A DNA stretch of 63,091 nt, counting the filler. It is 7 parts of 7 records of this genome, joined end to end, with 100 filler letters (N's around TTAATTAATTAA, not from the genome) between each part and the next. Parts side by side here need not be neighbours in the genome. Positions count along the whole stretch, not along the records: positions 26,584 to 37,992 come from SRR20825014_24; 6 more parts are not named here. One strand, written 5' to 3'. The notes below the pieces were generated by a model. That model ran no database searches. It had not been told where the DNA came from and saw only the letters and a program-made list of their open reading frames with translations. Both the position numbers and the translations under genes were made by a program. The stretch's first letter is position 1, and every line of letters starts with the position of its first letter. Positions 20,148 to 47,801 of the stretch are shown piece by piece.

Positions 20148-20235
20148 TTCTAATTTATTATTTTGAAAATAGAAGCGCGGGGTCCTAACTTTGAAAAGAG
20201 GTGAGTTAGAGGGGAAAGGAATAGCAGAGGTGGTG
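20148..20235 (-). promoter_or_regulatory. Putative polypyrimidine tract and AG trans-splice acceptor
   Basis: Minus strand ctctgctattcctttcccctctaactcacctcttttc ... ttagaaATG; a similar tract (cccctctctcaaaattctctccttttt) lies near 17155-17180, upstream of the next gene. Confidence 0.5.
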
Positions 20236-20756
20236 ATAAATTCAAAAAAGACATTGTTGTGTAACAATGTCAAGCGATGGTTGCGATAATTTTGTGTTTG
20301 TGTGACAAGGGTAATAATACGCAACTACAGTTGAATACAATCATGGTGGTGGTGGGGTCCTCTCTCATCATGGATGTTTACAATTTTAAAGTCGATTCGA
20401 TTGACGACAACAAAGATATAAGCAAACACCAATCATGTAGAAAGGAGAGTGAAGTGGAAGAGGTAATGTGGGGAGAGTACAGTAGTAGAAAGGGTACCAG
20501 TGATATAACGGCGCGAGGTGGTGCTGACCTTCATAGTGATGAGGGCAAAAAAATATATAAAAGTGTGGGGAAATCGATGGGGTGGTGTTTTTTTTACAAC
20601 AGCACCTGCCCTGCTAACAATGTCAACCTCATCCAGTAAGGAGTGACGATGATATCNNNNNNNNNNNNNNNNNNNNNNNNNNNNNNNNNNNNNNNNNNNN
20701 TTAATTAATTAANNNNNNNNNNNNNNNNNNNNNNNNNNNNNNNNNNNNNNNNNNNN

Positions 20757-26483: not shown

Positions 26484-26589
26484 NNNNNNNNNNNNNNNNN
26501 NNNNNNNNNNNNNNNNNNNNNNNNNNNTTAATTAATTAANNNNNNNNNNNNNNNNNNNNNNNNNNNNNNNNNNNNNNNNNNNNGAGAAA

Positions 26590-26609
26590 TTTTCCCGACG
26601 GGAAGTTTC
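26590..26609 (+). repeat. Left terminal inverted repeat of the AT-rich contig
   Basis: ttttcccgacgggaagtttc is the exact reverse complement of 37973-37992. Confidence 0.92.
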
Positions 26610-26739
26610 ACGTATATCTTACGTACATAAATTTTATGCGTAACTTACAGAAGACATGCCGGAATATATTTACATTACATGTATATACACGTACATAGTA
26701 TGTAAGTAAATAATGTAACATCATACATCGTACGTTTGC

Positions 26740-29700
26740 GGGTATATACTTTATCGTTGTTGTGGTTTTGCATACATGCATAAATTACACCTACTCAGGA
26801 AAGGTGTACATGTATCATATATACACATTATAACCTACACTCTTTTATTAGTTTAATGTGTACTGTCTTATCAAGTATACTACCCCTGTGGGCACCTTTC
26901 CAAACATCCCCCTGTCAGCAATGAAGTATACTCCGCTTACGGTCAGACATGTAACATATTTCGGGGTGCTCCCACAGAAATGTACTTGACCACATCACCA
27001 CTACAAGGAATAACCGTAATGATATTTCTGACATGCACGGTATACTTATAAGTACTCGTGCATACCCTAGGAGTTTTGTTTTTACTTGTTGTGTGGTGTT
27101 AAGCACATCCTCCCGCACCGTTACATGGAAAGGTGTATGCACAGTAGGTATATAACACCTTACACGCGACATGTAATGCTGTGTTCCGCGCAAAACCCCG
27201 GTATGTGTAAAACGTAATATTATGTTGGAACACCTATTTTTTCTAATTGTAACGTACCGTGCCACATATGTATTAGTTACGTATAGCTAGTTTGTTGTTG
27301 TTGTACGTAGCTGATACAATTGCGGTAAATCCTGGAAAGGTGTACCTGGTAACAACCTACGCGGAGTGTGCTATAATAACATTACTGATAATATGTATAC
27401 TACACGTTCGTAATATTATGTGAACAACCATGTGAGTATGTTAGGTGTACGGTCGCGTGCAACATACTCATACCTATAGGAATACCCGGGTGTACTTACG
27501 TATCGTATTAACTTATAATTTTCATCCGTTGTTTTGTTTTGGTTTTGTGTATAATAATATCTGTGTCTCGGGAAAGGTGTGTATCATTACCGATGTATAT
27601 ATGTGTACCCTATTGTTACGAACCCCTGTACGCAGTAGATAAGATTACGTAATCCCGTCGGGTGGGGTGTAAGTAACTGCAGTTCTTTGCGAGATTGCGT
27701 GTATCGCCTCGTACGTACTGTATTATCTTTACTTGTGGCAAGTTATATAAAATTAAAAAACACCTTTCCGAGTAACACTTGTAACAAGCTTTTATAAAAC
27801 ACAACAAACTTAACAAAAAAATTTGTATGTGAATCATGTACAACTTGTATCCGCCTACAGTGCTTACACAGTAAATAACGGAATAACGGCCCGTGTATTA
27901 CAATACCTGTGGGATATTACGTTAAATTAAAATTAGACCTGGCTTATATTTCTGTAAGTTACGTCCGCTTACATGTATGTATGTACATATTTGTAGGTGC
28001 ACGCTATCAATCGATACGTATACTGGAGCGGTGTTTACACAATACGTTGTGGGTTTACCGGGGGCAGTACACTCGTATAATCACATACACAACTTCATCA
28101 TACGACCGCGTGTACGTGTACCGTTATATCACAGGTGCTACCGCGGAGTTGTATACGTAATACGTTAAACATTCATCATGTTTGTAATGCTGTGTTTTGT
28201 TTTGTATACGTATACCTACATGCTGCATTTTATAGGAAAGGTGAATACTTATACGAAATGTACTGATCCGCATATTGTGTTATATGTTGTTTATTAATTG
28301 GTAGGTTTTTTCTGCTGGTGGATAACATTTAACATAAGGAAAGGTGTGCATGTACGCAGTGCAATAACCCACGTAAGATGTAGTTTAGTTTGGCTTTGTA
28401 TAGTATTACTTTAAAAAAAACTAAACACGGAAAGGTGTGTACTACATGCGCACACTACACGGACATACGTAAAGGTATAATTCCAAGTACAAGTTGGATA
28501 CGTAACATACTACGTAACCGAAGTTACATATATTTCTGGGAGGGGTATACGAATCCGGATCTTATAAAAAATAAAACCCGCTAGTATTATCTGACAGTAC
28601 ACGGGTAGATTAAAACTACGTAGGCTAATCCCATCGTGTATTACGTAATGATAATATCCGCGTATAACAGCATACGTAATAATGGTACGCCCTAAATAGA
28701 TTACGTTCAGATAGGAACATCTACGTGAAACTACGTAGTAGACGTTACCGTGCATGTTACTGATACGTTGTTAGCTTAATACTATGTGTGTTTGTTTTCT
28801 CGCGGCAGCGCATTACACTATATTTAACATGTACATGCTGGAAAGGTGTAAACATGTCGTGAAGATGTATTTTAATATGCACTTTTAATACGTTAATAAC
28901 GTACCTGTACGTAAAGCGGGCGTATGTATGTCATGCACGGTACGTTGTCATTATTACATGTTGTGCACGATAGTGTACGTATATAATTACACCTACAACG
29001 TAGGGAAAGGTGCAGTTAATAACATTATATAATTTGTTACTACTCCGCGTGGTGGTTATGTGTTTCTGTATGTAGTGACTGCATGCACTCCCTGGCCTGA
29101 CATTGTGCACCCACTGGTAAAGGATGTACTTTCATAATTTTTGGTTGTTGCGTGTACTTGTGTAGTCATAAACGCTTTAGGAAAGGTGTACGTACATCCC
29201 CATATATGTATGTGGTTACACATCCGCGGAAGGAACCACCCATGTTTTGTAATGATAAGTACACACCTTTCCAATGCTCGCGGTCTACATCAGAAAACAT
29301 ATCCCATACACAAATACAAGTAACATTTCTCACAGTGCATGTGTTGTATTTTTGGCAAGGTTCGTGTATTACTATTTGTCATATAACAGACGTATGTCAT
29401 TACAAAATTTACGGGTATTCAACGTATTACAATGTAACAAGCATTAGTGACTTACCCCGTGTTGTAAGTATGCGTATCCTGTTTATACGTACGTGTAGCA
29501 GTAGTACACCTACACTACCTCAGGTATACTGGTGTTATATAAAGTACATTTTTTACGGGGAGAAGCTCCCTAATATAGTTAAGGACGTTATGTCTTACCC
29601 CGCATGTACATAATATACACGTAGACACCTTTCCATGTAGTACAGGTAAGGTTCGGATTACGTATCTCATACACAAATAATAAAATAAATTAATTTTTAA

Positions 29701-32700
29701 CGACTGTACGTAAAAGTAGTACACATTGTATACGTCGCAGGACTGTGTATAATCCACGACAAAACATTACGCGACATAATATTCGGGGATGGACAGACCT
29801 GGAGAAGGTATGCCATACCAGCACGTATTAAATACGCGAGATGTACTACGTTTACATGTCTATAGAACTATTACGTGCAGGTACTATCAAGACCATGTAC
29901 ACACCTTTCCACAACGGCCTGGTGTGCATGGTATATACACATCCCAAAATAATAATGTACTACGTAAAATATAGACACACATAATAACTGTATGTCGTAG
30001 GAACAACGCTAATCGTACACATTGTTTTTTCAAATCGGAGAACACCTATTACAAGAGAGGTTATATAATATATGCACCGTATACACAACACTGCACGGCA
30101 GGCGATTTCTTTCCGTGTAAGTTGTTGTTGTTGTTCTATAATTACGTGTGCGTATTAAGCTTTATTGGAAAGGTGTACCCGCGTACAAACGCTACCCCAG
30201 TATACATGTATACATGTTCCTTGTAATACTCAACCATAAATAATTATTTTTAATTTTTTGTGGGAAGGGACTAACCATATTACACTACCCGGAAAGGTGT
30301 ATGAGTGCGCTTATGGGATGTGACGGGATTCACCCCGTAAATACATTAAAATCGGATTTGTGTAATACACATATAATAAAATACCGGTATGCAGTATTTG
30401 TAAGTACGTGGTACATACACTTTTTTATGTTTTGTGGGTGTATACCAATAACACATGGTGTTAACGCTGATGCCGGAAAGGTACATACACGTATCGTAAT
30501 CTTGTATATGGCATAACCCACGAATGTGTAATAACATATACCTGTATGCGTACACTGCTACACCTTTCCGGTAAGTAAAAACATCCCCATCTAGTATACT
30601 GCTACGCAATAAAATAAACGTAAATCTATGTACCGCGCAGTACGATTAATTCTCCATCTGTAGGTAGCTGAGATCATGTTCTGCATGTTTTACATTTAAT
30701 ACTCCTCCGTGTACACGCATACCTGTGGGGGGGCACACCTGTCCAGGAAGACTTACTACTGGGTATAGCATCATCCCAACCACAAAAAGTAAATGAAGTA
30801 TCATAGTTTACACCTGGGTAACATGTTGTTATTCCGTGTAAGTGCATCACATAATACGTCCTTTTATTTACGTGGTATATGTATATATATATATACGAGT
30901 ACATTACACGGATACGCGTAAAATGAAAGTAGTATAATAATACTATTGCCCGATACGCTACACTGTTGCTATCCTTAAACAGGTTATTATTAATTTATTT
31001 TATTTATACTAGACATGTACTTTTTGGAATCCTACCCTGGAAAGGTGTTTTTTATATGTTCACTCTAAAATAGCAGACTGTGTGTAAGTATATATTGACA
31101 CAGTATATAACTATACTAACAGCACTACACGATCACCAACAAGGCGTGACGCCACGTAGTGAGGGTAAGATATATTACGTGTGCAACGTAAGGAAAAAGT
31201 AACTTACATCTTACAAAATACACGGATTATAATATACCTGTATGACAGAAAACACCTATTGTGTAACTTTTGTGTTTTGTTCGTTTTTATTGTTTTTTAA
31301 TATCACACTATAACCCGGGAAAGGTGTATTCACATCCGGTGTTGTATGCTACGATCGCAGTACATGTAAACCAATACGCACGTAGTATATGTAACAGCGT
31401 AGTGTTGTTGTTTATACGCGTGTAGCCTAGTGCACGGCCGGCATGTTGTTTCAGATGAAACGCCCCGGACGGACATATCGTAACCTTTAACTGGTAAGTG
31501 CATGTAGCAATACTTAAACTCTATACAGTAAGTATATGTACACTGTACAACCTATCAAGGGTTAATACATGGTCTGGGTAAGCAGGTTCATATTAACAGT
31601 GTATACCGAGATGTATTCTACACGTGATTTTGTTTTGTTGTTGTAATCATTGCTGACGTATTGGTACAGTGTCCTAGGAAAGGTGTAACGCGTGAGGATG
31701 CATCACCACAGATTACGTCCTACACGTGTATAGAATATAGCTGTAAAACTAACCCGTTCCCGTACGTGGTACAACCTTCATAACATAATGCCGTCAGGCG
31801 TGTAATATGTACATGGACATACATTTACTTTTTTGTTTGTTTTTGTATATGTAACCCCACTCAGTATTACATCCCACTGGAAAGGTGTTGTATCACTACA
31901 CAATACGTGTATACGTAGTTTTCGTGTTATAACCGTATCACCGTAACCCCTCGTAAAAACGTATATAAAATACATGTAAGTACACTTGGTTGTTTAGTCT
32001 TTCCGGAGAGTTACCTGTTGCGGTAAGGCCCTCCTGAGAAAAAAAAACACACCATGAACTGTATACATGTATGTTACACACGCTTACACAGTAACTGTAC
32101 AACCCACTCATAATCGTTTATGTACTGGTTTAATAACCACACCTTTCCTATACGCGGTAAACGTTGATATATCCTATACAAAACATAAACAAATAAAAGT
32201 TATAACAAACCTTAATGGTGAAGGCATGTTACCCTATACATGTGCACATGGTGACGTATATAAAACATAATGCTACATTACATGTATGGCACATCGGTAA
32301 AATCAGTTACAATGGTCGTACACGTGTACTTACACGTATATGTACATAGCATCGTGTATGGTTATGCATGTACGGGGATTAAAGTATACTACACGCATTA
32401 CGAGATTAATAAAATTAACATATACGTAAAGTTATATTTTCTTTTTTATTTTTTTGTGTGCGTGTAATATTAATGTAGTTTACCCCGGAAAGGTGTGTAC
32501 GTTGATGATGATACTGTGTACCTAGTATAACACCTTTCCGTGGGTATGTAGTAACTGTATTTACCATTAAACGTCAACTCACATGGATGAACCCCGTAAG
32601 CCTTATCCCGTGTATTTTCATACGTAGTAATATTTGTACATGGAATATATTTACCGTTACGGACGTAGTACGTGCACCACCGTATATATGTCCCCGGGTA

Positions 32701-35700
32701 CACCTTACACATAGGGTTTAATATGTGTACGGTACGTGTTAATTACAAAAGGCGTATGTATCGTATTATTACTAAGTTGTACACCATATGTATAGTACGT
32801 TAAACATTACATACTTTGTTGTAAATTTTTAATACTGGTAACATTTCATACACGCTGGAAAGGTGATCCGACTTAAAAGTTTCAGATTTATGGTTGCTTT
32901 ACGTACATGGTATGTCTTACACAGGGTGTAAGTACACGTACTTAAAAATAAAGTAAACACCAGATACTAAATATGTAACCGCTATCCCATAGGTTTGTAT
33001 TAACTACGATCCCGGTTTTTTTTGTTGCAGTATGTAACAGTGTTGTTGGCCTAACCAGTAGGAAAGGTGTGGTATATACGCGAGGCTTATCTGATAGTAA
33101 CACATTGCATAACATACGTTTAGTTGCATTAATCCTATACGGGTGGGGTATAAAACGTGCCCGGTACCACCTACCAGCAAGACGTACCGTTTTTATGTAC
33201 CTCGTGGATGACGTTAATAGTTTATATGTTTTTGTGTATGGTGTGTATGTGTATTACCACGTAGCATATACTAAGGAAAGGTGTGTACTCGCATAGTTAT
33301 ATCCATAGTTGACTTAGCGGTATGTATTACATACTCCCCGGGTAGTGCATAACAAATACATATTGAATTGCAGTTACTTTGTCGGTGTTATTTTTTGATG
33401 TGTACGTACTTAATATAACATACTAGGAAAGGTGTAATGGTTGTATATGTAATTAATGATTACTCCTGGAGGATATACACATACACTAGAAATCCATATA
33501 GGAGTGTACAACACACGGTGTATATCTTACCGTCTATAGGCTTACGTACGGGGTAGTATACACACAATAAAAACGGTGTAACAGCCCGGTAGTACGTAGG
33601 TTGGTTACCCTATAAACATACATACCCTGTATTTGAAGTACATTATATTAGACGTTGTAACTTTCCGGTTATATACACGTATGGTATAACATAAATCCGT
33701 AATGAATATTTGTAATGCTTTCCAGGTGGTACTGTTGTGCATAAATGGCATTTTTGGAAATGCTCCCCACACCTTTCCTAGCAAAACTATAAAATACGGT
33801 ATAAAAAATCTGCAACAAAATGAAGCCATCTATACACGCTGCTTGTACATGTACGTGCAACTATCCGGTAAAGACAGGCAACATCTGTCCGAATGGCTAT
33901 ATGATTGCGTTGTGTGTTGGCACACCTTTCCGGGGTAATTCCTGAATGTTTGTGTATATGCTACGCATAATATTAGGCACAGTAACGTGCAAGGTATGTT
34001 CCATTTACACAGCGGGTATTGCTTGCTATGCGGCGTGTAACATGTTACCAGTATACATGTCTTTACGCACGGGGGGGTGTGCACATACACCAGTGAGGTT
34101 ATTACGTTCTCTGTAGGAACGACATGTTACATTTTATACCGGGGTGTATACCACGACCGGATGTGGTTTTACGGGAAAGGTGTTGTGCACGATTTATGTT
34201 GGCAAGTACTATGTTAACCGTATTACTGGTATTTGTTTATTGTTATGTGAGAATTGTATATTCACTTTTCCCGGAAAGGTGTATTCCGTGCATGCATCGT
34301 AACACATTATGGCTATTGTGGAGGGCTGCCCCCGGGATTACGGTATGTATTTATATGCGTGCGGTGTGTACCTTATGCCTACGTGTGGTGTGTTTTTTTG
34401 TATTTACAACTGGTGTAATACATACATCCTGGAAAGGTGTATTACACGTTAATGGAAACGTTTTGTGTAAACCGGGATTAGTACTGTATACACAGGTATG
34501 TTGTAACTTGTATCCGTTACATGTATGCTATAAGAGTACTTAACGTAGCGCGGTGATTACTACCGGTTATACGGGGGTTATACACCTTTCCAGGATGTAT
34601 GCGGTTTATCCCCTTATAGCGCAAAACGAAAACTAAACTAAATCAGTATAATGTAAAACTTGCTGAACAACGCATATCTAATAGTGATGTGTAAACGTCA
34701 TACCATGTCTGTGTATGCACTGTGTCGCATGTGGTCTCTACAACATATCGAGTAGTACTACCCCTGAAAGTCATTACATCTCGGGGACCATATAGGTAAT
34801 TTTACGTATATATAGCCCCATGTGATACACCCTAGTACGCTTACGGTGATACTTCTAACGAGTACGGGGTAACTATACGTAACTATACGACCGTGTATTG
34901 CACATCGTGTGAAGGCCATAATGTAAACGTACTGTTACATGTATTACTGTTTTTGTTTGGTGCAGTACTATAACAGTATGAGTTTAACAGGAGCGGTGTA
35001 GGTGTAAGTACACTACCCTATGTAATGGCTCTTACACACCTTTCCGGTAAAATGCATGTAGTTGCGTCTACACCAAAAACTATAAAATAACAATTAACTT
35101 CCGGTGACCGTCTATCCGTGGGATACACTTCCCTGTTAGATCTTACACAAGCATATATTGCATACATATGCAACACGGTTTTCCCAGGTATGTTTAGTTG
35201 TGGTTCTGCGTATATGGCTTGTAAAGTACAAAACACACATACGTATGTATTAAGTGTAACGGATTACACCTTTCCAGTGGGAGGGGCTATGTCTTACGTG
35301 GTATGTTATCCTTCAAAAAAATGAAACTTAATCTGTACACAGCAGATACCTGTATAAAGGTTTATCCTGTAAATGGCAACTATCCCCCGGGTGGCTTACG
35401 TCATTACATGTGTGCATGTAGGGGAGTACCATACAACCTCGGAAAGGTGTACACACACAGGGGGTGACACACGCACAGCAAACACAGAAATTGCTGGTCG
35501 TCGTAAGACACGTACTGGTGAGGACGTAATTTACATATGTGGTAGGGTCGTTGTCATTATCTAGTACATGTGTGGAAGCTTGTATACACAATCCGTAGGA
35601 ACAATCCTGTAGTATACATTTATCTCCCCGGGAAAAAACACCTTTCCCGTATATTGATAATACTGAGTACATCGTTACACCTCACCATCAAAAAAATTAT

Positions 35701-37890
35701 ATGTGGGTATTAAACATGTCGTTTTGGGTAATATGTCAACATGACCCTGGTAAACACCTTTCCAGGGGATTGTTATTATACGTCACCTGTAGTCATACAA
35801 AACACAAGAAACATGTATACTAATTTATTGTATTTACATGCAACAAGTATGTTTACGTTAATAGCACACAACGTAATATCCGTTGTAAGCAGGTAATGCA
35901 CGCGGTATTAATACAGTATTAGTTGCACACGTAGCAATGGATAATAACATACTGGTCGCATATACAGATAGGTTACACCTTTCCTAAACAGTGTTGATGT
36001 ATAAAGCCCTACAAAAAAACAACAAATATAAATTTGTAAGCGCTCATAAAAGTATACCACTACTGTACCCCGCATTAACTACGTACAAAGCATTACACAT
36101 TGTTGGTGGGAGTCTGGTTTTACTTTACGTTTTTTGGTGTTGTGTTATACGTGTATACTTCGATTACGCGGGAAAGGTGTACTTTATTCATGTCAAGCAG
36201 TATGCATAATATAATTATAACCCAACAGGCCACGCACCTTTCCTGATAAATGTAACGTATGTAACCTACAAGAATCCTTCAAAATAACAAAATCAAATTT
36301 ATATATGGTTATAGTGAGAACGCGGTAACGTTAACATTAGGTTGTTATACATATACGAAACACACATATTACGGGCCTGCGTAGTTCACGCGCGGTATCT
36401 TCCACGTCTGTAACACATGCTCGGCTATGTATTAACGGACTGTTGTATACTGTAATTCCTATAGATACAGTACATATTACTTAACTATACTTTTTTGGTA
36501 AGGCGCTCCTCACGGAAAAACCATGCATCTAAAATTCCACGGGATCGCGTACGTGTAAACCCGCGTATATACGTGCATGTGAATAAATAAGTACGTACAT
36601 AAACATATACACCTTTCCTATATTAAACGATGTAGTATGTTACGACTAACAAACAACAACAAAATAAGCAAGCTTACAAGTGGTAATACTTTACTACACA
36701 AGGTACGATATGCGTGTCGTGTCATGTACATATATCGTACATCACGTAGTTTGTAGTAGTGTGTAACGGAACCCCACAATAAGGGGATGTACTCATATAC
36801 ATGCACCGGGTATGTAAGCAAGGTTATACTACCCATACTCTACAGTACTGGATCAGGCATTACAGTTATCCTATGTAATGTTTTTATTTTATTTTTCTGC
36901 GAAGCAGGCCTGTCTGTACATACCTACATTTATAGGAAAGGTGTAGTGGTGTTCCGTAACATATATATATATTATATACATCTTTCCTACTATACGAGGA
37001 GATGTGTAACCGCACCATAACAAAACAATAAAAAAAATGGAAACACGTAATAGGTGAGTGTTAACCCGTTTACAATAATATGTTCGTGTAAGTGGGTAAC
37101 AAAAGATATATTCTTGTAATGAAGAAATACATACATAAAAGTTCTGTGATGGTTCACTACATAATACCGTACAGGGTTACACGTACCAGAATAGAACTTG
37201 TTCGTTACATAAGTTATGATTGTCATACGTATAACAGGTTATTGACCATTGTTATTTAAGAAGGACGTCCACCTGATGGAGTAACCTCCACCTTGTGAGC
37301 ATACCTATACATAGCGATATGTTTCTGTAAGACAAGTTTGTTACTGATGTTTATATAGGCGTTGTGTGCACTTGTCATGTAACGTAAGTATTTACCCTTA
37401 CGTTAACAACATACCGGTATGTACCGCACCTTTCCTATGTATGTACGTGATTACCGCCTAACATAATGACACATAAAATACCTATAGTAAAGTGCAGTAC
37501 CCGGTTATGCGCACATGATCAGGATTAATGCCGTTAGCTTGTTACCAACGTTCATGTGTCGCTACCGTACACGGACACGTGCTTATACGTTAGTAACAAA
37601 AAGTTTTATGCCATGTTATTTTTTTGTAATGTGCAAGTAAAGTAGGCTTCGCTTGGAAAGGTATAAGTTAATACTACAGGTATGTGTTCTGTATTGCATG
37701 TATACTACAGGTTGATACCTACCTACGTATACACCTTTCCTATGTTTAACGTAACACACGCATATACGAAAAATCCGGGAAACATAGACTATAATATACG
37801 TTGGGTGTAATGACATGCATACATAAACTTTTTTGATAACAATTTTATGAATATAATATGACCCTATATTGTTACACCGTGGAAAGGTCA
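26740..37890. repeat. Dispersed array of about 50 GGAAAGGTGT/ACACCTTTCC cassettes (putative guide-RNA genes)
   Basis: Manual count of about 50 exact or near-exact copies. Plus strand examples: 26798, 27127, 27334, 27571, 28338, 28429, 30291, 33061, 34431, 36171. Minus strand examples: 27760, 29263, 29901, 32139, 34582, 35975, 37731. Most have a unique T/G tract about 20-35 nt 5' of GGAAAGG. The repeat itself is certain; the gRNA role is inferred. Confidence 0.85.
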
Positions 37891-37914
37891 CATCAACAAG
37901 GTGAGCAATGTTGT

Positions 37915-37992
37915 GAAAACTTCCCGACGAAAAACTTCCCACGAAGTTTGGGAAACTTCCCGCGAAATTCGGGAAACTTCCCGTCGGGAAAA
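37915..37992 (+). repeat. Degenerate tandem GAAACTTCCC repeats, including the right terminal inverted repeat (37973-37992)
   Basis: gaaaacttcccgac-gaaaaacttcccac-gaagtttgg-gaaacttcccgc-gaaattcgg-gaaacttcccgtcgggaaaa. Confidence 0.9.
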
Positions 37993-38092
37993 NNNNNNNN
38001 NNNNNNNNNNNNNNNNNNNNNNNNNNNNNNNNNNNNTTAATTAATTAANNNNNNNNNNNNNNNNNNNNNNNNNNNNNNNNNNNNNNNNNNNN

Positions 38093-38695
38093 CATGGTCA
38101 TGGCTTCGACCTGATCATGGGTGACATAGATCGAGGTGACACCAAGGCGACGTTGCAGCGCCTTGATTTCGATCCGCATCTGATTGCGCAGTTTCGCGTC
38201 CAGGTTGGAGAGCGGTTCGTCAAACAGGAACAGCGCCGGATCGCGCACGATGGCGCGGCCCATGGCAACACGTTGGCGTTGCCCGCCCGAGAGTTGACTG
38301 GGCTTGCGATCAAGGTAGTCATTGAGGTTGAGCATCGCCGCGGCTTCGGCCACTTTCGCGTCAATTACGTCTTTCGGTGTTTTACGGTTTTTCAGGCCAT
38401 AGGCGATGTTTTTGCGCACACTCATATGTGGGTAAAGCGCGTAGTTTTGGAACACCATGGCGATGTCACGATCCGCGGGATCGACGTCATTGACGATGCG
38501 CTCCCCGATGGAGAGCGTCCCTTCGGTGATGTCCTCAAGCCCTGCGATCATCCGCAACAACGTGGATTTGCCACAGCCCGAGGGGCCAACGAGGACAACG
38601 AATTCGCCATCTTCGATGTGGAAAGAGGAAGGGGTCACGGCCTCTGCGCCGTTGGGGTAGATTTTGCGGACAGAGTCCAAGCTAACCTGAGCCAT
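38093..38695 (-). CDS. ugpC: sn-glycerol-3-phosphate ABC transporter ATPase, 3'-truncated
   Basis: [42 protein letters not shown]; operon context. Confidence 0.88.
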
Positions 38696-38706
38696 AGTTG
38701 TAGTCC

Positions 38707-39618
38707 TTATTTATCGGATTCCGTGAGGCCCTTGACGAACCAGCTCTGGAAGAAAATGACGACGAGCACGGGCGGCAGAACGGCGATCAGCGCCAACATA
38801 TTGGCCCGGCCATATTCGGGGATGTTGTTGCCTTCGAGCGTCTGCACGATCTGTTTGATGCCGCGCACGAGGGTGTACATGTTCTCATCCGTGGTGATCA
38901 TGGTGGGCCAGAGGTATTGGTTCCAGCCGTAGACAAACATGATGATGAACATCGCCGCGATCATGGTCTGCGAGAGCGGCACAAGGATGTCGATGAAGAA
39001 TTTGATCGGCCCCGCCCCATCAATCCGCGCGGCTTCGATCAACTCTTCGGGTACGGAGCGAAAGAACTGGCGAAAGAAAAACGTGGCCGTGGCCGAAGCG
39101 ATCAGTGGGATGATCAGGCCTTGGTAGGTGTTCATCATGCCGAGCTGTTGCACGATTTCATAGGAGGGCAGGATGCGGACCTCCAAAGGCAACAACAGCG
39201 TGGTGAAGATCAACCAAAACGCCAGCGTGGCAAAGCGCAGGCGGAAATAGACGATGGCATAGGCGGCCATCATCCCGATCACGATCTTGCCCACGGCAAA
39301 GCCAATGCCCAAGATCATCGAGTTTTTCAGCATGTTCATCCCGGTGTTTTGACCGGAAAAGCCAGAGGCTTCGAACATCGCTTTGCGGAAATTGTCATCC
39401 AGCTCGGTGCCGATGGTCAGCGTCGGGCCGAGTTTCATCGTCTCAAGGTCCGGCGTGGTCACGGTTTGCAACACGATCAACAGCGGCAACAGCATGAGCA
39501 GCGAGCCAAAGATCAGGATCGCGTGATCAAACACGGTTTCAAGTTTGAACCATGTACGTTTGCGCGTCTGCGCAATGGCGTGGGCCGGATGAGGGGAATG
39601 GGCGGAAATGTCAGTCAT
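38707..39618 (-). CDS. ugpE: Glycerol-3-phosphate ABC transporter permease
   Basis: [29 protein letters not shown]. Confidence 0.85.
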
Positions 39619-39627
39619 GTCAGATCC

Positions 39628-40509
39628 TCAAGTGTAATGAATGCGCCGCTCAATCAGGCGGAACTGAAAGACGGTGAGGGCCAGGACGAGGATCATCAGG
39701 ATCACGGATTGCGCCGAGGAACCGCCAAGATCATTGCCGCGGAAACCATCGACGAAAACCTTGTACACCAGCGTCATCGGGTTGTTGCCCGGCTCGCCTT
39801 TGTTGAGCGTATCGATCACGCCGAACGTGTCGAACAGCGAATAGGTGATGTTGGTGATCAACAGGAAAAACCCGGTGGGTGCCAAAAGTGGGAAGGTGAT
39901 GTCCCAAAACCGGCGCGTGCCAGAGCGGTTGTCCAACAGCGCGGCCTCGCGCACCGAACGCGGGATGGATTGCAGCCCGGAGAGAAAAAAGATGAAATTG
40001 ACCGGCACTTGTTTCCACACGGAGACCACGATCATGGCAAAGGCCGTGTCAAAATAATTGACGCCCAAGGTAAAGTCCCAGCCAAAGAATTTGAACAAAT
40101 CCGACAGCGGTCCCCAGGTTTGGTTGAACATCAAAAGCCCGATGAAACCCGCAACGGGCGGGGCGACCGCATAGACCCACATCAACAGCGTGCGATAGGT
40201 CTTGGCCCCGCGCAGAACCTTGTCGGCCTTGACCGCAAACAACAGCGCCAGAGCGAGCGAGAAAAACGTCACCAACACCGTGAAGAGCACGGTGAACTTC
40301 GCCACTTTGAGATATTCGACGGAGCTGGTGAGGTGGGTGTAATTCTCAAGCCCCACAAAGGTCTGACCAAAGCCAAACGGGTCTTGCAGGTAGAACGAAG
40401 AGGTCACGGCATGCAACGCCGGCCAGTAGAAAAAGATCGCGATGATCAACAGTTGCGGCAAAAGCAACAGGATCGGCAACCATTTGGTGGAGAATCCAGC
40501 GCGTTTCAT
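39628..40509 (-). CDS. ugpA: Glycerol-3-phosphate ABC transporter permease
   Basis: PQL....FF.WPA, WKQ...NF.FF..GLQ.IP, DTFG.ID, LVYKV..DGF.G.DLG.S.AQS. Confidence 0.85.
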   Translation of the reverse strand: MKRAGFSTKWLPILLLLPQLLIIAIFFYWPALHAVTSSFYLQDPFGFGQTFVGLENYTHLTSSVEYLKVAKFTVLFTVLVTFFSLALALLFAVKADKVLRGAKTYRTLLMWVYAVAPPVAGFIGLLMFNQTWGPLSDLFKFFGWDFTLGVNYFDTAFAMIVVSVWKQVPVNFIFFLSGLQSIPRSVREAALLDNRSGTRRFWDITFPLLAPTGFFLLITNITYSLFDTFGVIDTLNKGEPGNNPMTLVYKVFVDGFRGNDLGGSSAQSVILMILVLALTVFQFRLIERRIHYT

Positions 40510-40533
40510 GGGGGAGGGCCTTTCTGAGAAAGC

Positions 40534-40562
40534 CTGACGGCCGCAGCGGGTGCGGCCGTCAG
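40534..40562. other. Stem-loop between ugpB and ugpA (mRNA stabiliser)
   Basis: ctgacggccgca-gcggg-tgcggccgtcag. Confidence 0.65.
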
Positions 40563-40582
40563 TGTGGTGTCACAGGCAAGGC

Positions 40583-41899
40583 TTAGCCTTGGGTTTTTGC
40601 GAAACGGGCCAAAAGCTCGTTGCCTTCTTTTTCGATCGTCGCCATTGCGTCATCGACCGTGGTCTCACCCGACAAGATGCGGCTGAACTCGCGGTTTTCG
40701 ACGTCACGGATTTGAACGTAGAAGCCCATGCGATACCCTTTGGTGTTTTCACCGGAGGTCAGCATCAACTGTTTGATGCCGGTTTCAGCAGCCGGGAAAC
40801 GGTCATAATGGCCGTCTGCTTTGGCCATCTCATAGGCCGCAGTGGTGATCGGCACATAGCCGGTTTCACGGTGCCACATGTACTGAACTTCCGGCGAAGT
40901 CAGGTAACGGAAGAACTCAGCCGTGGCTTTGTTTTCCTCGGCGGATTTGCCGGACATGGCAAAGAGGGACGCGCCGCCGATGAAGGTTTGGTAACCCTCT
41001 TCGGTGATGGAGGACCAGAACGGCAGGTTGGTGGCGGAGAAGTCAAACGGAAGGTCTTTTTTCATCAACCCGCCGAAGGAGCCGGAAGAGCCGATCCAAA
41101 GGCCAACTTTGCCCTGTTCGAACTGGGCTTGGTTGTCGTTCCAACCGGTGCCGTAAAAGCCAAAATACCCATCGTCCAGCCACTGCTTGACATGAGTCCA
41201 ATGCATTTTGAATTCGTCGGTGTTGACGAGGATTTTGGTGCCCTCAGAACCATCGTAGCCATTGTCATTGGTGGCAAACGGCAGGTTGTGACGGCTAAAG
41301 AAGTTCTCGGCAAATTCCCACGGCAGGTGCGATTGCACGAGCGGCACGTAACCGGCGGCTTTCAACGCGGGGGCGGTAACGGTTTCGAACTCTTCATAGG
41401 TTACAGGAGCTTCAACGCCCGCCGCTTCAAGCGCCTGTTCGTTGAAATACATGATCGGCGAGGAGGAGTTGAACGGCATGCCGATCATTTTGCCGGTATT
41501 GTCGGCGTAGAAGTAACGCACACCGGAGATGTAGTCTTCGATGTTGAAGTCCACGCCATTCTCGGACAGCAGATCCTGCACCGGAACAGTCGCGCCTTTG
41601 GCGCCGATCACGGTGGCGGAGCCTGCGTCAAACACCTGAAGGATGTTCGGCTGTTCACCGGCGCGGAACGCCGCGATGCCCGACGTCAGGGTCTCTTCGT
41701 AAGAACCTTTGAACACGGGAGTGATTTTGTACTCATCTTGCGAGGCGTTAAAGCCAGCCGCGATTTCATTGACGGTTTCGCCAAGATCGCCACCCATCGC
41801 GTGCCACCACGTGATTTCGGTTTCGGCAAAGGCGGCTGTGCCCAACAGGGTGAACGCGGTTGCGGCCCCCAGGAATTTCGATGTTGTCTTGATGGTCAT
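40583..41899 (-). CDS. ugpB: Glycerol-3-phosphate-type ABC transporter substrate-binding protein
   Basis: Signal peptide; WWHAM.G, KG.Y.E, IAAFRA..QP.I.QV, MPFNSS, IGGASL, WH..TGY.P.T. Confidence 0.85.
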   Translation of the reverse strand: MTIKTTSKFLGAATAFTLLGTAAFAETEITWWHAMGGDLGETVNEIAAGFNASQDEYKITPVFKGSYEETLTSGIAAFRAGEQPNILQVFDAGSATVIGAKGATVPVQDLLSENGVDFNIEDYISGVRYFYADNTGKMIGMPFNSSSPIMYFNEQALEAAGVEAPVTYEEFETVTAPALKAAGYVPLVQSHLPWEFAENFFSRHNLPFATNDNGYDGSEGTKILVNTDEFKMHWTHVKQWLDDGYFGFYGTGWNDNQAQFEQGKVGLWIGSSGSFGGLMKKDLPFDFSATNLPFWSSITEEGYQTFIGGASLFAMSGKSAEENKATAEFFRYLTSPEVQYMWHRETGYVPITTAAYEMAKADGHYDRFPAAETGIKQLMLTSGENTKGYRMGFYVQIRDVENREFSRILSGETTVDDAMATIEKEGNELLARFAKTQG

Positions 41900-42027
41900 G
41901 TCACATCTCCGGTGTCTGTTTAAATCACGCAGGCATCCCAAGCGGGGCGCAAGCGTCGAAAAGGTCCGTCCTCCCTCACGGGAGAAACGCGCAAGACACG
42001 TGCAGGCCCCGGATGTCCATCAGGGCC

Positions 42028-42051
42028 TGCACGCCTGTGCACACGTGTTCA
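42028..42051. promoter_or_regulatory. Putative LacI-family operator(s)
   Basis: Overlapping near-palindromes tgcacgcctgtgca and tgcacacgtgttca between the divergent ugpB and lacI-type genes. Confidence 0.4.
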
Positions 42052-42096
42052 GATACCCGGCGGATGTAATGGGAATGTGAAAGATTTTTATCATTC

Positions 42097-43149
42097 TTGA
42101 CAAAATATGACCCAAAGCCCGACAGAGACGCCGTGGATCAGGACAAGCTCATATCACCCAAGCGTCACCGCCGTGTGACAGCTCAAGACGTGGCCGAGGC
42201 GGCGGGCGTGTCGCGCTCTGCGGTGTCGCGCGCCTTTACCGAAGGCGCGTATTTGGACGAGGAAAAACGTGAGCGCGTGCGCGACGCCGCTCTCAAACTG
42301 GGCTATCGGCCAAATGCTTTGGCCGCGGGGCTTCAGGGCGGGCGCTCGCATCTGGTCGCGATTTTCGTTGGCGACATGCGCAACGCCTATGACACCGAAG
42401 TCGTCACCCGCCTTGTCGGCGCACTGAACGCCATTCAAAAATGGCCGATCCTGATTGATGGCGGCGGGCTTTCATCCGTCAAAGAGGCGATGGGCGAGGT
42501 GCTGCGCTATCCTTTGGATGCGTTGATCCTGCGCTCCGGCTCCATGGACCCCGCCATTGCCAGAGAATGCACCAAGCTGCACATCCCGGTGATCTCGTCG
42601 GGGCGCGTTCTCAATCATCCGCAAATCGACAATGTCTGTTGTCGCAATGCGCAAGGAAGCCAGGCCGCCGCCCAGCTTTTGTTGGACCGTGGCCGCCAAA
42701 ATTTTGGCTATATCGCCGGACCCTTGGGCTATAGCTCCTCAAGCGCGCGCCAAGACGGCATGATGCGGGCTTTGGCCGCCGCCGGGCTGGCACCTGTTGC
42801 CATTGAGGCCGGGGATTTTACGGTTGAGAGCGGGTTTGCCGCCGCCGAACGCCTGTTTGAGCGCGCGCGCCTTGATGCGCTGCTCTGTGCCAATGATGCC
42901 ATGGCCATCGGTGCGCTGGGGGCTGCGCGCGCGCGCGGGATCGACGTTCCGGCCGATCTGTCCATCGTCGGATTTGATGATATTTCCATGGCGCGCTGGC
43001 CGGGGATCAATCTGACAACCGTCTGCAATCCGATCGACATTTACGCCGATAAAGTCGTCGAATTGCTGAGCGCACGTCTGGCCGATCCCGAAAAGCCCAG
43101 TGACGTGGCCTATATCGACACGCATCTGGTTTTGCGCGGGACTCATTAG
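42097..43149 (+). CDS. LacI family transcriptional regulator
   Basis: T..DVA..AGVS.S.VSR, LGYRPN..A, CAND.MA.G, VGFDD; start position uncertain. Confidence 0.92.
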   Translation: MTKYDPKPDRDAVDQDKLISPKRHRRVTAQDVAEAAGVSRSAVSRAFTEGAYLDEEKRERVRDAALKLGYRPNALAAGLQGGRSHLVAIFVGDMRNAYDTEVVTRLVGALNAIQKWPILIDGGGLSSVKEAMGEVLRYPLDALILRSGSMDPAIARECTKLHIPVISSGRVLNHPQIDNVCCRNAQGSQAAAQLLLDRGRQNFGYIAGPLGYSSSSARQDGMMRALAAAGLAPVAIEAGDFTVESGFAAAERLFERARLDALLCANDAMAIGALGAARARGIDVPADLSIVGFDDISMARWPGINLTTVCNPIDIYADKVVELLSARLADPEKPSDVAYIDTHLVLRGTH

Positions 43150-43377
43150 GTCGCAGCTTTTGTTGCAGCCCTCTGGCCCGGATCACATCCGCCCGAATTT
43201 TGACCCCCTGACCCGAAAATCGCCCGTAGAATGACCAAAAGCCCCTGTCGGAGGATTTCCCCTATAGGTTGTGGTCTTCGCCTGATCCGTTGCCGTATAT
43301 CCTGATCTCAATCAACGCGATCCTCCTGTAGATCGTCCTGGGGAGGAGGATACAGGCCTTATTTGAAAGAGAGAGAT

Positions 43378-44316
43378 ATGTTTTCAGTCTTGGATTTCCG
43401 GGCATTTTCGTCTGGGCAAGATTCGGTCGGGTTTACGACAGCACTGGGGGAGGCCTGTCGCGACAGTGGCGTTTTTTTTCTCACACATCACGGCATTCCG
43501 CGCGGGCTTTTGACGGATGTGGGCGAGGTGGCCGATACGTTTTTTGCCCTGCCAACGCAGGACAAAACCCCCCTCGACATCCGCCATTCCAACACCAATC
43601 GCGGCTGGGCGGGCTATGGTGTCGAAGTGATGGCGGACCGCCCGGATGTGCCTCTGTACAAAGAGAGCTTTAGCATCGGCTTGGATCTTCAACCCAACGA
43701 TCCGCGTGTGCTGGCACATGAGCCGTTTCGCGCCCCAAACGCGTGGCCCGCGATCGACATGTTTCGCGATGTGATGTTGGATTATTACAAGGAAATGCTG
43801 GCGCTGGGGCGGCTTTTGATGCGCGCGGTCGAACGTGATCTCGATCTGCACGCCGATTTTTTCCAGCCGCATTTCACCGAACCGATGGCCACCCTGCGCC
43901 TGTCACATTACCCGGCCAACCCGTGGGACATTGCCGCCACTGACACCGTGGACGGTCCGGCACAGCATGATTACGGCGCGTTGACGATGGTGCTGACCGA
44001 TGGCTCCGCCGGGATTCAGGTTCAGGACAAAGCGGGCCAATGGGTCGATGTGCCGGACATGCCGGACAGTTTGTTGGTGTTGGTCGGGGATTGCCTGATG
44101 CGGTGGTCCAATGATCAATATCGCTCGGCGCCGCATCGGATTTTACCGCCCGCCGCGCCGCGCCGTTTGGCGGCCTTTTACCTTGATCCCAACCCCGACA
44201 GTTTGATCACCCCATTGCCCGGCACGGGGGCGGCGCATTACGCACCGATCCGCGCGGCCGAATATTTGCGGGCGCGTTTGGATGAGATTTATCTTTCGGC
44301 GGCCGTGGCGCAGTAG
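43378..44316 (+). CDS. Isopenicillin-N-synthase-like 2OG-Fe(II) oxygenase family protein with atypical motifs
   Basis: AC...G.F.L..HGI, FF.LP...K, N.WP, LR..HYP, DYG.LT, VGD.L.RWSN..Y.S..HR. Confidence 0.82.
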   Translation: MFSVLDFRAFSSGQDSVGFTTALGEACRDSGVFFLTHHGIPRGLLTDVGEVADTFFALPTQDKTPLDIRHSNTNRGWAGYGVEVMADRPDVPLYKESFSIGLDLQPNDPRVLAHEPFRAPNAWPAIDMFRDVMLDYYKEMLALGRLLMRAVERDLDLHADFFQPHFTEPMATLRLSHYPANPWDIAATDTVDGPAQHDYGALTMVLTDGSAGIQVQDKAGQWVDVPDMPDSLLVLVGDCLMRWSNDQYRSAPHRILPPAAPRRLAAFYLDPNPDSLITPLPGTGAAHYAPIRAAEYLRARLDEIYLSAAVAQ

Positions 44317-44369
44317 CGTTGGATTGAGACTGGCTGGACAGGGGCATGAGCGGCCAGTAAGGCTGCAGT

Positions 44370-44615
44370 ATGACCCATATTTTTGATCAAGACCTCGATG
44401 CCATCGACCTGTTGTGCCCGCTGCCCGTGCTCAAAGCCCGCAAGCGGCTTTTGGCGATGGCACCGGGCGAGATATTGCGCCTGCGGGCCTCTGATCCGGC
44501 GGCGGTGATCGACGTGCCGCATTTTTGCGCCGAGGCGGGGCATGAATTTGTGTCGATGTCCGACGAGGATGGCGTGCAGAGCTATCTGATTCGCCGCAGC
44601 AAAACCACGCTTTAA
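44370..44615 (+). CDS. TusA family sulfur carrier
   Basis: LD...L.CPLP.LK..K.L, DP.A..D.P.FC...GH. Confidence 0.9.
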   Translation: MTHIFDQDLDAIDLLCPLPVLKARKRLLAMAPGEILRLRASDPAAVIDVPHFCAEAGHEFVSMSDEDGVQSYLIRRSKTTL

Positions 44616-45232
44616 GAGGTCAACATGGCTTCGGCGCGGGCGAGGTCTTCGCGCGTGTTGATGTTGAAAAACGGATCAAACGACGGCGATGTCTCAAACA
44701 CCACCGGCACCACGCCTTTGCTCTCGGCAAACTGCCGCATCCGCCGTTGATCGTGCCGCAACGCCTCCCGAAGCTCATCGCGCAATGCCACCGGCCAAAG
44801 CGCGAAGGTCGGATGCCAAAACCGTCTGCCTTCTGCCTCGGTCACGGCCAGGCCAAAACCTACGGGCGAGGAACCCGCTTGCAGCCGTGTCACAAGGTCG
44901 GTTGGGAAAAACGGCGTGTCGGTGGCCACCGTCACAATCGCCTCAAAGCTCATGCGCGCGGCCCAGTCCAACCCGGCCAAAACCCCCGCCAAAGGCCCCT
45001 GCGACTCTATGCTGCCATCGGAGAACACCGGATAGCCAAAGTCGGCAAAGCGGGTCAGGTCGCCATTGGCGCTGATCGCGAGTGTGGCGCATTGCGGCGA
45101 AAGCCGCGCGATCACCCGCTCGATCAAAGGTGCACCGCCAAGCCGCATCATGCCCTTGTCCTGCCCGCCCATTCGGGTCGCTTGCCCCCCCGCAAGGATC
45201 ACCCCGGCGATCTGCGTTATTCTTGGTGTCAC
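44612..45232 (-). CDS. mobA: Molybdenum cofactor guanylyltransferase
   Basis: GVILAGG...RMGG.DK, GPLAG.LAGL, DTPF.P, FFN.NT.EDL; GTG start. Confidence 0.93.
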   Translation of the reverse strand: MTPRITQIAGVILAGGQATRMGGQDKGMMRLGGAPLIERVIARLSPQCATLAISANGDLTRFADFGYPVFSDGSIESQGPLAGVLAGLDWAARMSFEAIVTVATDTPFFPTDLVTRLQAGSSPVGFGLAVTEAEGRRFWHPTFALWPVALRDELREALRHDQRRMRQFAESKGVVPVVFETSPSFDPFFNINTREDLARAEAMLTS

Positions 45233-45328
45233 TGCGTGCTTTCCTCTCTGGCGTTCCGTCTGTATGTCCAGATACCATCCAATCAAGGCTCGCGGACTGC
45301 AAGGGCCAGACAGATCAAGGGCTGGTTC

Positions 45329-45835
45329 ATGTTGGGATATGTGATGATGGCGGGGCGCGGCGAAACCGATGCGGTGTTATGCGCCTTGGCCGACCGGCTG
45401 ATCTCCGAGGGCCGCCGTCTCGCGGGCGCGGTGCAAATCAATCGCGAGCGTCCCGGCGCAAGCAAATGCCATATGGAACTGAAGCTGCTGCCCTCGGGGG
45501 AGAGCCGATCCATCACGCAAGCCTTGGGTGAGATGTCGCAAGGCTGCCGTTTGGACGCCGAGGGGCTTGAACTGGCCGTGGCACAGGCGGAACGGGCCTT
45601 GGAGGCAGGGGCGGAGTTGGTTGTGATCAACAAATTCGGCAAACAGGAAGTGGCGGGCCGGGGCTTTCGCGCGCTGATCGCCGAGGCGCTGCATCGCGGT
45701 GTCCCGGTAATCCTTGGGGTCAATGAGAAAAACCTTCACGGCTTTGACGCCTTTGCTGGCGACATCGCCGAACCGCTTGCGCCCGATCTGACGGTGCTGT
45801 TGGAGTGGTGCCATGCAAAGTTGCATGTCGATTAA
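45329..45835 (+). CDS. DUF2478 family protein
   Basis: LAG.VQ, ITQ.LG....GCRLD, NKFGKQE..GRG. Confidence 0.82.
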   Translation: MLGYVMMAGRGETDAVLCALADRLISEGRRLAGAVQINRERPGASKCHMELKLLPSGESRSITQALGEMSQGCRLDAEGLELAVAQAERALEAGAELVVINKFGKQEVAGRGFRALIAEALHRGVPVILGVNEKNLHGFDAFAGDIAEPLAPDLTVLLEWCHAKLHVD

Positions 45836-45938
45836 AAAATATGCGCATAAGCTTAATTTTTGACATATTGCCAAAGGGCACAGCGCGCGCCGCGCGGGAA
45901 TCGTTTACTTTATAGGCCGATCGCCGCGATCTGAGGCC

Positions 45939-47712: not shown

Positions 47713-47801
47713 AAACTGTGCGTTTGCAGCATTTTTTGGTCCGCACGACCCGACGCCTTTTGCATGTGCAGCGCGATTCCACGCATAGATAAGACATCGA
47801 A

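Follow-up and report, generated by a model that had tools for sequence, protein, structure and literature searches.

About 50 guide-RNA-gene-like units behind a short conserved motif on a putative kinetoplast DNA contig in a bacterial assembly

We analyzed a window of 63,091 nt from a bacterial assembly, composed of seven contigs chained by six N44-TTAATTAATTAA-N44 linkers, so that adjacency across a linker is meaningless, and found that one of these contigs (positions 26584-37992) is filled with copies of a 10-nt motif, most of which are followed at a preferred distance by an A/C-rich tract on the same strand. We consider it likely that this contig is a kinetoplast DNA (kDNA) molecule of a non-trypanosomatid, bodonid-like kinetoplastid and that its motif-plus-tract units would be about 50 guide-RNA (gRNA) genes, located on both strands. 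The gRNA-gene reading is drawn from the kinetoplastid-type mitoribosomal protein mS35 encoded in the same assembly, from an architecture of sibling molecules, and from three parallels with published gRNA genes; transcription, exact 5′ ends, and guide function are inferred. The DNA of the contig is probably mitochondrial.

The motif ACACCTTTCC, allowing at most one mismatch, has 54 matches in the window compared to 3.57 ± 1.93 in shuffled sequences, and 50 of the 54 lie inside contig 26584-37992, 47 with the exact core CACCTTTCC. When 47 units of the window were aligned on the motif, the profile consisted of a pyrimidine at −1, the invariant core, few C at +10 to +16, and an A/C-rich, G-poor stretch at about +36 to +60, with no conservation otherwise. 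The same motif, C-poor +10 to +16, and A/C-rich +36 to +60 were found again in 244 independent units of relatives. An earlier reading of this DNA from its letters (hereafter the sequence-only reading) had described an A/C tract behind the motif, and the motif-anchored logo bears this out in both sets; that reading had placed the feature at 27302 to 36013, where it is indeed present, but it actually fills the whole contig. In both sets, C makes up only ~5% of +10 to +16 (e.g., 32149-32155) and purines are favored at +11 to +13, suggesting that the functional element probably extends beyond the 10-mer. Motif copies are single, and convergent copies lie 165-469 nt apart, each with its own tract. 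The orientation of the units along the molecule has an apparent bias in the window contig and none in the relatives.

The sequence-only reading had also claimed near-fixed spacing, about 27 nt, between the motif and an NTACA/ATACA start. All 12 of its hand-measured distances were exact on re-measurement: 27 nt for the motifs at 27334 (GTACA), 28235, 28429, 32139, and 34431 (ATACA), 30-31 nt for those at 31879, 30475, 35754, and 31677, and 22-24 nt for those at 29901, 35036, and 35975. As it had foreseen, RYAYA (R, purine; Y, pyrimidine) is enriched at +22 to +31, where 25 of the 47 units have one compared to 13.1 ± 3.0 for random anchors (2000 sets of 47 anchors in the same contig; maximum, 23); ATACA is found at these spacers in 9 of 47 (2.9 ± 1.7 at random). 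The relatives repeat the signal, with RYAYA in 113 of 244 units (69.3 ± 7.1; maximum, 92 in 1000 sets) and ATACA in 45 (16.7 ± 4.0), and at their spacers 32-41 and 60-69 ATACA falls to background (14 and 15) and RYAYA to near background (87 and 80). The A/C run itself starts a median of 26 nt after the motif in the window (interquartile range, 19-30; modes at 26 nt with 6 units and 29 nt with 4 units) and likewise 26 nt in the relatives (interquartile range, 23-32), and the most frequent ATACA spacer is 27 nt in the window (4 units) but 23-24 nt in the relatives. A preferred distance is therefore real and significant, but "near-fixed" overstates it, given the interquartile range and the shifted ATACA peak of the relatives. 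The expected zone contains an RYAYA in only about one unit out of two, so that exact 5′ ends would be predicted at best for that half and not for the remaining units. The spacing is a preference, not a constant or a rule.

The tracts have a composition of their own. In 205 units, the first 15 nt of the run have G at 0.04 or less and T at 0.13 or less; the run is nearly pure A/C for ~15 nt, after which G and T return gradually. With A at 0.6, C at 0.25, T at 0.1, and G below 0.05, a tract has the makeup of a Watson-Crick complement of U/G-rich RNA, and pan-edited kinetoplastid mRNAs are U/G-rich. Starting from the tracts, the coupling is seen as well: of the 34 strongest A/C runs on the two strands of the contig, 28 have the 10-mer (at most one mismatch) 8-60 nt upstream, several of the other six carry a more degenerate copy, and in five relatives the counts are 35/42, 21/26, 30/36, 20/28, and 13/20. 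The tract is unstructured, as the 30 nt from +36 have a mean minimum free energy of −0.79 kcal/mol vs −2.72 kcal/mol for random windows, and the unit is polar, with the A/C run constantly on one side of the motif and on the same strand.

A sediment-metagenome run contains a syntenic relative ~9% diverged from the contig, with 886 differences over about 10.1 kb (eight listed pieces) and, for the run in total, 622 transitions and 292 transversions. Forty differences were listed individually, 39 of them from one contig (30169-30718; interior, 30220-30667), and nine probably near-end differences were unlisted. With motif (0 to +9) and tract (+36 to +60) predefined for the three units in 30220-30667, the 105 nt of motif and tract took 2 of the 39 differences, with the remaining 37 falling in the 343 nt outside them (one-sided Fisher p = 0.0018), in what is a small sample. 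Difference-free runs extend over all three tracts; 30220-30269 and 30592-30624 are the two longest, and 30412-30441 has 30 nt. Judged from this comparison, motif and tract are under constraint in one stretch of one diverged relative. A separate 30-nt difference-free run, 30510-30539, lies outside every predicted unit, upstream of motif 30560, and may be due to chance or be an unrecognized element.

Such units could also be DNA-level sites, used in recombination, by a topoisomerase, or in replication priming, on a selfish or structural multicopy DNA. The patternless occurrence of the motif in both orientations would fit this, as would a conserved region composed of palindromic repeats and the strand-symmetric purine-pyrimidine alternation of the filler between units, which suggests DNA-level pressures. 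However, the polarity of the unit speaks against it, each tract is distinct and yet spared by substitutions in the diverged relative, and sequence-specific constraint on about 50 different 30-mers suits templates better than protein-binding sites, so that we regard DNA-level sites as improbable.

The contig is bounded by a 29-nt inverted repeat, and we scanned metagenome contigs with 20 nt of this end repeat, obtaining nine loci. Seven of them (2.4-12 kb, GC content 0.37-0.39) carry 11-58 copies of CACCTTTCC and provided the replication set of 244 units (245 motif copies, one of which was dropped as too close to a contig end); L007, a chance hit, and L002, which has the conserved region and no motif, were left out of the unit counts. 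Outside a conserved region of ~0.5 kb, the seven loci are related neither to one another nor to the window contig. Within that region, a core of ~330 nt is enclosed by blocks of GGGAAAnTTCCCG-type units, with inverted copies beyond the blocks on one side. Two loci, L004 (12,073 nt) and L005 (11,233 nt), read through this core, and because the core is flanked by repeat blocks in the relatives, the "terminal inverted repeat" of the window contig is just the two edges of the shared region, where the assembler stopped. The whole molecule is probably circular, with a size of about 12 kb. One public run contains an identical 11,480-nt contig together with other contigs of 7-10.7 kb that share only the motif and the end repeat, and there a 32-nt piece of the end repeat has a depth of 2350 compared to 32.4 for the contig, indicating that many sibling molecules coexist. 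In the manner of minicircles, many sequence classes thus share one common conserved region while differing in their variable regions. The universal minicircle 12-mer, conserved sequence block 3 (CSB-3, GGGGTTGGTGTA), was looked for in the loci, and the core of this region is missing from the window contig. Scanning species-representative genomes with the end repeat gave three loci, each of them a chance match in bacterial DNA that is GC-rich and has no copy of the motif.

The eukaryotic context is provided by contig 16502-20656, which, like contig 60674-63091, looks eukaryotic although the assembly is bacterial. Its open reading frame (ORF) of 962 aa matched five PDB chains of 874-890 residues, all named mS35 (E values, 1.9e-89 to 1.3e-80), with matches spanning N-terminal, middle, and C-terminal segments; besides mS35, no PDB chain was found at E ≤ 1, and Pfam and the ESM Atlas detect only a small MRP-S28/mS35 core in this ORF. 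The five PDB entries are presumably trypanosomatid mitoribosomes, and outside trypanosomatids, mS35 has ~300 residues in other eukaryotes. Based on the match, on this identity of the entries, and on the size of mS35 elsewhere, we consider a kinetoplastid-like eukaryote to be part of the same assembly. The mS35 protein has a single close relative among 5.8 billion proteins (90% identity, on a metagenome contig), indicating that the organism is poorly sampled. The unit contig has ~38% GC, its neighbors 48-66%, and the eukaryotic contigs about 48-57%, which fits the AT-richness of kDNA relative to the nucleus that is reported for kinetoplastids, unlike Diplonema (PMC6334171).

A diplonemid-type mitochondrial chromosome with trans-spliced gene fragments (modules) would agree with multicopy 8-12-kb molecules that have a common region and relatives from metagenomes, and such an mS35 might also exist in diplonemids. 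Against this, the molecules share only ~0.5 kb, with about 95% of each being unique, and each carries ~50 units of ~30 nt instead of one cassette. The contig is AT-rich compared to the nuclear contigs, whereas D. papillatum has mitochondrial DNA reported to be GC-richer than its nucleus (PMC6334171), and the ORFs of the contig are not above chance length with code 11 or with TGA read as W. We therefore find a diplonemid chromosome very improbable. Protein genes were rejected in general, as the longest stop-to-stop frame in the contig, 170 aa, was reached by 12.5% of Markov simulations, and no stop-codon reassignment convincingly opens long frames in the contig. Small ORFs behind the units were rejected as well, as the first ATG-initiated ORF has a median of 11 codons compared to 13 at random positions, with the same result when TGA is read as W.

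A bacterial mobile element, a phage, a synthetic spike-in, or an assembly artifact could be suspected because the contig sits in a bacterial assembly and occurs identically in runs labeled as several different organisms, like a reagent or spike-in contaminant. The nearest bacterial genome (G001), which has 23% of the window's sampled words in common, has no match to the unit contig, however, and neither have phage and plasmid collections or, with three patterns, viral contigs; the contig also has no ORFs beyond chance. The ~9% diverged syntenic relative in sediment, with its 2:1 transition bias, indicates that the contig is natural and not synthetic, and siblings are present in other metagenomes, so that this origin seems hardly credible. 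A scan with Rfam and a tRNA scan of contig 26584-37992 gave no matches, and full-text literature matches to the 10-mer looked like primers only, with none in a kDNA context.

Among known systems, the closest case is the gRNA-containing "ScaI-flanked" kDNA molecules of Trypanoplasma borreli. Putative gRNA loci are reported there on both strands of the unique center of repeat-flanked molecules, about 23 per contig; a motif of 9 nt lies 20-40 bp upstream of each, their median length is 28 bp, and G:U pairs are few (PMC9679448, Gerasimov et al. 2022). The window contig likewise has a unique central region, bounded by repeat blocks of opposing orientation, in which dozens of loci lie on both strands without a pattern in their order, each with a short conserved motif upstream; in both cases, different molecules share the repeat region only, and the ~30-nt biased stretch found here resembles those short guides, with few G:U pairs. 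The differences are that the motif is RYAGGCTTT there and YACACCTTTCC here (RYAGGCTTT has 1 match in the window, on a bacterial contig, vs 1.59 expected), that about 23 high-confidence loci per contig compare to about 50 units per ~11 kb, that CSB-3 is reported there and was not found in the loci here, and that a ~330-nt conserved core between repeat blocks suggests a circle here. Furthermore, the T. borreli loci are reported as validated against edited mRNAs, whereas the units described here are predicted.

In Trypanosoma brucei, a conserved repeat of 18 bp is reported to be followed after 30-32 nt by an RYAYA/ATATA pentamer at which transcripts begin, and the anchor behind the start is called "AC-rich and GT-poor" (PMC9202587, Cooper et al. 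2022). The units have the same succession as a minicircle cassette, that is, a conserved upstream element, an RYAYA/ATAYA-type start that in about half of the units stands at a preferred distance from it, and, immediately after the start, a stretch rich in A/C and poor in G/T (205 units; profiles of 47 and 244 units). However, forward and reverse 18-bp repeats frame each gene in T. brucei, the start zone of 30-32 nt is tight, and a minicircle of ~1 kb has 3-5 genes, almost all of them on the same strand, whereas we found a single 10-11-nt element, a broad start zone with its mode at 23-27 nt, and ~50 units on both strands of ~12 kb. CSB-1 to CSB-3 are also present in T. brucei, where G:U pairs abound in the guiding regions, and CSB-3 was not found here. 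The trypanosomatid gRNA interpretation of the sequence-only reading is thus retained as to the gRNA-gene-like character and the kinetoplastid context but not as to trypanosomatid-type framing repeats, 30-32-nt spacing, or CSB-3.

Minicircles of Bodo saltans and of free-living Prokinetoplastina are reported to have 0.6-2.2 kb and 1-3 gRNA genes (PMC7515712, PMC7859406). They too have a conserved and a variable region, and in bodonids, gRNA genes occur in both orientations, but they are far from a molecule of about 12 kb with ~50 units. Bodo caudatus reportedly has non-catenated kDNA circles of 10-12 kb, which would be alike in size class and in the context of a free-living bodonid, and we know of no sequence-level description of large non-catenated bodonid kDNA circles.

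Under the gRNA-gene reading, the contig would be the variable region of a kDNA molecule that was co-assembled with a bacterium, and it would hold about 50 small transcription units for guides in uridine insertion/deletion editing. The 11-nt YACACCTTTCC and the C-poor stretch behind it would act as a promoter or other positioning signal for the mitochondrial RNA polymerase and place transcription initiation about 25 nt downstream. The start zone would lie 20-31 nt downstream of the element, often at ATACA or another RYAYA, and the A/C-rich, G-poor, unstructured ~30 nt would be Watson-Crick anchor and guide, complementary to G/U-rich edited mRNA.

Several observations weigh against this interpretation. 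Thirteen of 50 motif copies lack a clear A/C run, with 37 having a run that scores 10 or more, and the spacing is broad, with tracts starting at 12-41 nt in the 37 window units that have a clear tract. Exact CSB-3 was not found in any of 12 loci, and with up to two mismatches, L004 has two matches, a chance level, neither of them in the conserved region. Overlaps of a tract prefix with the body of another were only in slight excess (23 vs 13 in a reversed control, k = 12), and transitions were not enriched among tract-to-tract mismatches (197:621 vs 37-55:146-156 in shuffles); tract-to-tract similarity was above mononucleotide and block shuffles, as was that of the flanking regions. These overlap and redundancy tests used 205-291 low-complexity tracts from more than one strain, a small sample in which blanks weigh little. 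Stops in all three frames over 27 nt were present in 5 of 292 reverse-complemented tracts vs 1.7 in shuffles, a test that is powerless. Finally, the unit contig is tied to the kinetoplastid nuclear contig solely by sharing one assembly.

The lack of a clear signal in the cascade and redundancy tests and the missing CSB-3 also leave room for motif-driven transcripts of another short mitochondrial RNA class (regulatory, antisense, or primer-like) encoded by plasmid-like multicopy DNA of the same flagellate, as anatomy and conservation show constraint and not its purpose. However, kinetoplastids are not generally known to have such an RNA class, the tracts are composed as a Watson-Crick complement of U/G-rich edited mRNA would be and match published gRNA anchors, and the layout is the same as in T. 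borreli, which makes this explanation unlikely, though less so than the others weighed above.

The kind of system is already known, since gRNA genes behind a short motif and multi-gene kDNA have been described, and what is new is that the motif is a distinct one, that the genes are densely packed, and that the conserved region lacks CSB-3. More tentatively, and with the odds somewhat against it, these may be ~12-kb circles without the universal CSB-3 origin motif, with ~50 guide genes each and one 11-nt YACACCTTTCC ~25 nt before each start, from an undescribed free-living kinetoplastid kDNA; so few G in the guides would then also mean editing almost without G:U wobble. If the gRNA-gene reading is right, guide storage in a non-parasitic relative of trypanosomes could be viewed at the sequence level, with about 50 guides per 12-kb molecule, on both strands and each behind one short signal, a case that falls between trypanosome minicircles of 1 kb and the large repeat-flanked Trypanoplasma molecules. 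The motif-plus-spacing rule would also be a finder for hundreds of guide-gene starts in assemblies and metagenomes with this lineage. Promoter identity and initiation signals in trypanosome mitochondria are called obscure (PMC6789859), and YACACCTTTCC, a candidate promoter open to testing, would be a cleanly defined promoter for mitochondrial gRNA transcription if it is real. According to a 2026 preprint, only two nuclear genomes of free-living kinetoplastids are public (10.64898/2026.09.29.755400).

Table 1. Features of the window. Units are listed with the coordinates of the motif and the A/C run and with the spacer in nt; where a pentamer is named, the spacer is the distance from the motif to it.
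Feature	Position	Strand	Motif	A/C run	Spacer (nt)	Remark
Linkers	16402-16501, 20657-20756, 26484-26583, 37993-38092, 49884-49983, 60574-60673					six N44-TTAATTAATTAA-N44 linkers
mS35 ORF	17259-20147	-				962 aa, kinetoplastid-type mitoribosomal protein, on contig 16502-20656; PDB chain matches
Unit contig	26584-37992					stand-alone, between two linkers; SRR20825014_24; 11,409 nt; ~38% GC
Left repeat arm	26590-26618					29-nt inverted repeat; inverted GGGAAAnTTCCCG-type unit at edge of shared conserved region
Unit	26756-26807	-	26798-26807	26756-26770	27	
Motif	26892-26901	+	variant GCACCTTTCC	none clear		
Unit	27070-27136	-	27127-27136	27070-27100	26	
Unit	27290-27343	-	27334-27343	27290-27304	27 (GTACA)	
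Unit	27528-27580	-	27571-27580	27528-27550	20	
Unit	27760-27821	+	27760-27769	27796-27821	26	
Unit	28179-28244	-	28235-28244, variant TCACCTTTCC	28179-28205	27 (ATACA)	
Unit	28278-28347	-	28338-28347	28278-28321	16	
Unit	28379-28438	-	28429-28438	28379-28407	27 (ATACA)	
Unit	28785-28849	-	28840-28849	28785-28798	41	
Motif	29004-29013	-	variant GCACCTTTCC	weak only		
Unit	29138-29189	-	29180-29189	29138-29166	13	
Unit	29263-29319	+	29263-29272	29287-29319	14	
Unit	29625-29689	+	29625-29634	29668-29689	33	
Unit	29901-29955	+	29901-29910	29937-29955	24 (ATACA)	
Unit	30115-30176	-	30167-30176	30115-30135	31	
Unit	30244-30300	-	30291-30300	30244-30264	26	motif and run difference-free in ~9% diverged relative
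Unit	30421-30484	-	30475-30484, 2-mismatch GTACCTTTCC		31 (ATACA)	30412-30441 difference-free in diverged relative
Unit	30560-30624	+	30560-30569	30607-30619, weak		30592-30624 difference-free in diverged relative
Unit	30735-30788	+	variant ACACCTGTCC	30769-30788	24	
Unit	30982-31048	-	31039-31048	30982-31005, A-rich	33	
Unit	31268-31327	-	31318-31327	31268-31298	19	
Unit	31624-31686	-	31677-31686	31624-31644	30 (TTACA)	
Unit	31829-31888	-	31879-31888	31829-31852	30 (ATACA)	
Unit	32139-32198	+	32139-32148	32178-32198	27 (ATACA)	
Unit	32431-32496	-	32487-32496	32431-32465	21	
Motif	32530-32583	+	32530-32539	weak only		
Motif	32815-32866	-	32857-32866, variant TCACCTTTCC	weak, A-rich		
Unit	33014-33070	-	33061-33070	33014-33048	12	
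Unit	33220-33284	-	33275-33284	33220-33255	19	
Unit	33378-33435	-	33426-33435	33378-33403	22	
Unit	33769-33820	+	33769-33778	33803-33820, A-rich	24	
Motif	33922-33931	+		none		
Motif	34174-34183	-		7 nt only		
Unit	34227-34282	-	34273-34282	34227-34257	15	
Unit	34383-34440	-	34431-34440	34383-34405	27 (ATACA)	
Unit	34582-34645	+	34582-34591	34622-34645	30	
Unit	35036-35093	+	35036-35045	35070-35093	22 (CTACA)	
Motif	35266-35321	+	35266-35275	35314-35321, short A run	38	
Motif	35441-35450	-		weak only		
Unit	35638-35696	+	35638-35647	35677-35696	29	
Unit	35754-35813	+	35754-35763	35794-35813	31 (ATACA)	
Unit	35975-36032	+	35975-35984	36007-36032	24 (CTACA)	
Unit	36115-36180	-	36171-36180	36115-36146	24	
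Unit	36234-36297	+	variant GCACCTTTCC	36263-36297	19	
Unit	36609-36667	+	36609-36618	36645-36667	26	
Unit	36879-36944	-	36935-36944	36879-36896, A-rich	38	
Unit	36978-37037	+	variant ACATCTTTCC	37008-37037	20	
Motif	37426-37482	+	variant GCACCTTTCC	weak		
Unit	37614-37664	-	37655-37664, variant ATACCTTTCC	37614-37633	21	
Motif	37731-37776	+	37731-37740	weak		
Right-end block	37915-37992					four AACTTCCC(R)CG-type repeat units, then conserved region (unresolved by assembler)
Right repeat arm	37964-37992					last 29 nt

The assembly is mixed or contaminated, with eukaryotic nuclear and organelle-like DNA alongside a bacterium, and such an assembly deserves a flag. Bacterial operons are found among the neighbors of the unit contig, and contig 38093-49883 is plainly bacterial, encoding ABC-transporter permeases, solute-binding proteins, and a LacI-type regulator. 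On contig 16502-20656, an ORF of 184 aa lies on the strand of mS35, with a pyrimidine-rich spacer between both ORFs. Contig 60674-63091 has an open-ended ORF of 783 aa, rich in Asn, Ser, and Thr, in which no Pfam family was found.

The dinucleotide composition of the whole unit contig is biased in a strand-symmetric manner (observed/expected: GA/TC, 0.50; AG/CT, 0.65; AC/GT, 1.58; TA, 1.35), and the trinucleotides GTA/TAC are at 2.44 of expectation. The dinucleotide bias indicates that the filler between units alternates purines and pyrimidines, and the A/C tracts and the motif (CCTTTCC) interrupt this alternation.

In the conserved core (L004:11560-12073), three stretches are well conserved, namely a block GCTC(T/C)C(T/C)AAACGTGTGTT across six aligned loci, a palindrome ATGTCGCGACA, and AAAGTTTGATTTACC. 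With CSB-3 absent, all three are candidates for a role in replication or segregation. In L002:1-2280, the shared conserved region is joined to 2.3 kb of GGGAAATTTCCCG-type and homopolymer-rich repeats with no copy of CACCTTTCC, and this locus may represent a different class of molecule with the same conserved region, for example, a non-coding part of a protein-coding chromosome.

Three runs of a single study, labeled as three different organisms, contain 100% of the sampled words of the unit contig, and two other studies have runs with identical pieces of it at low depth; two runs presumed to be RNA have just a few low-depth pieces. It seems that one and the same flagellate strain, or its DNA, accompanies several cultures.

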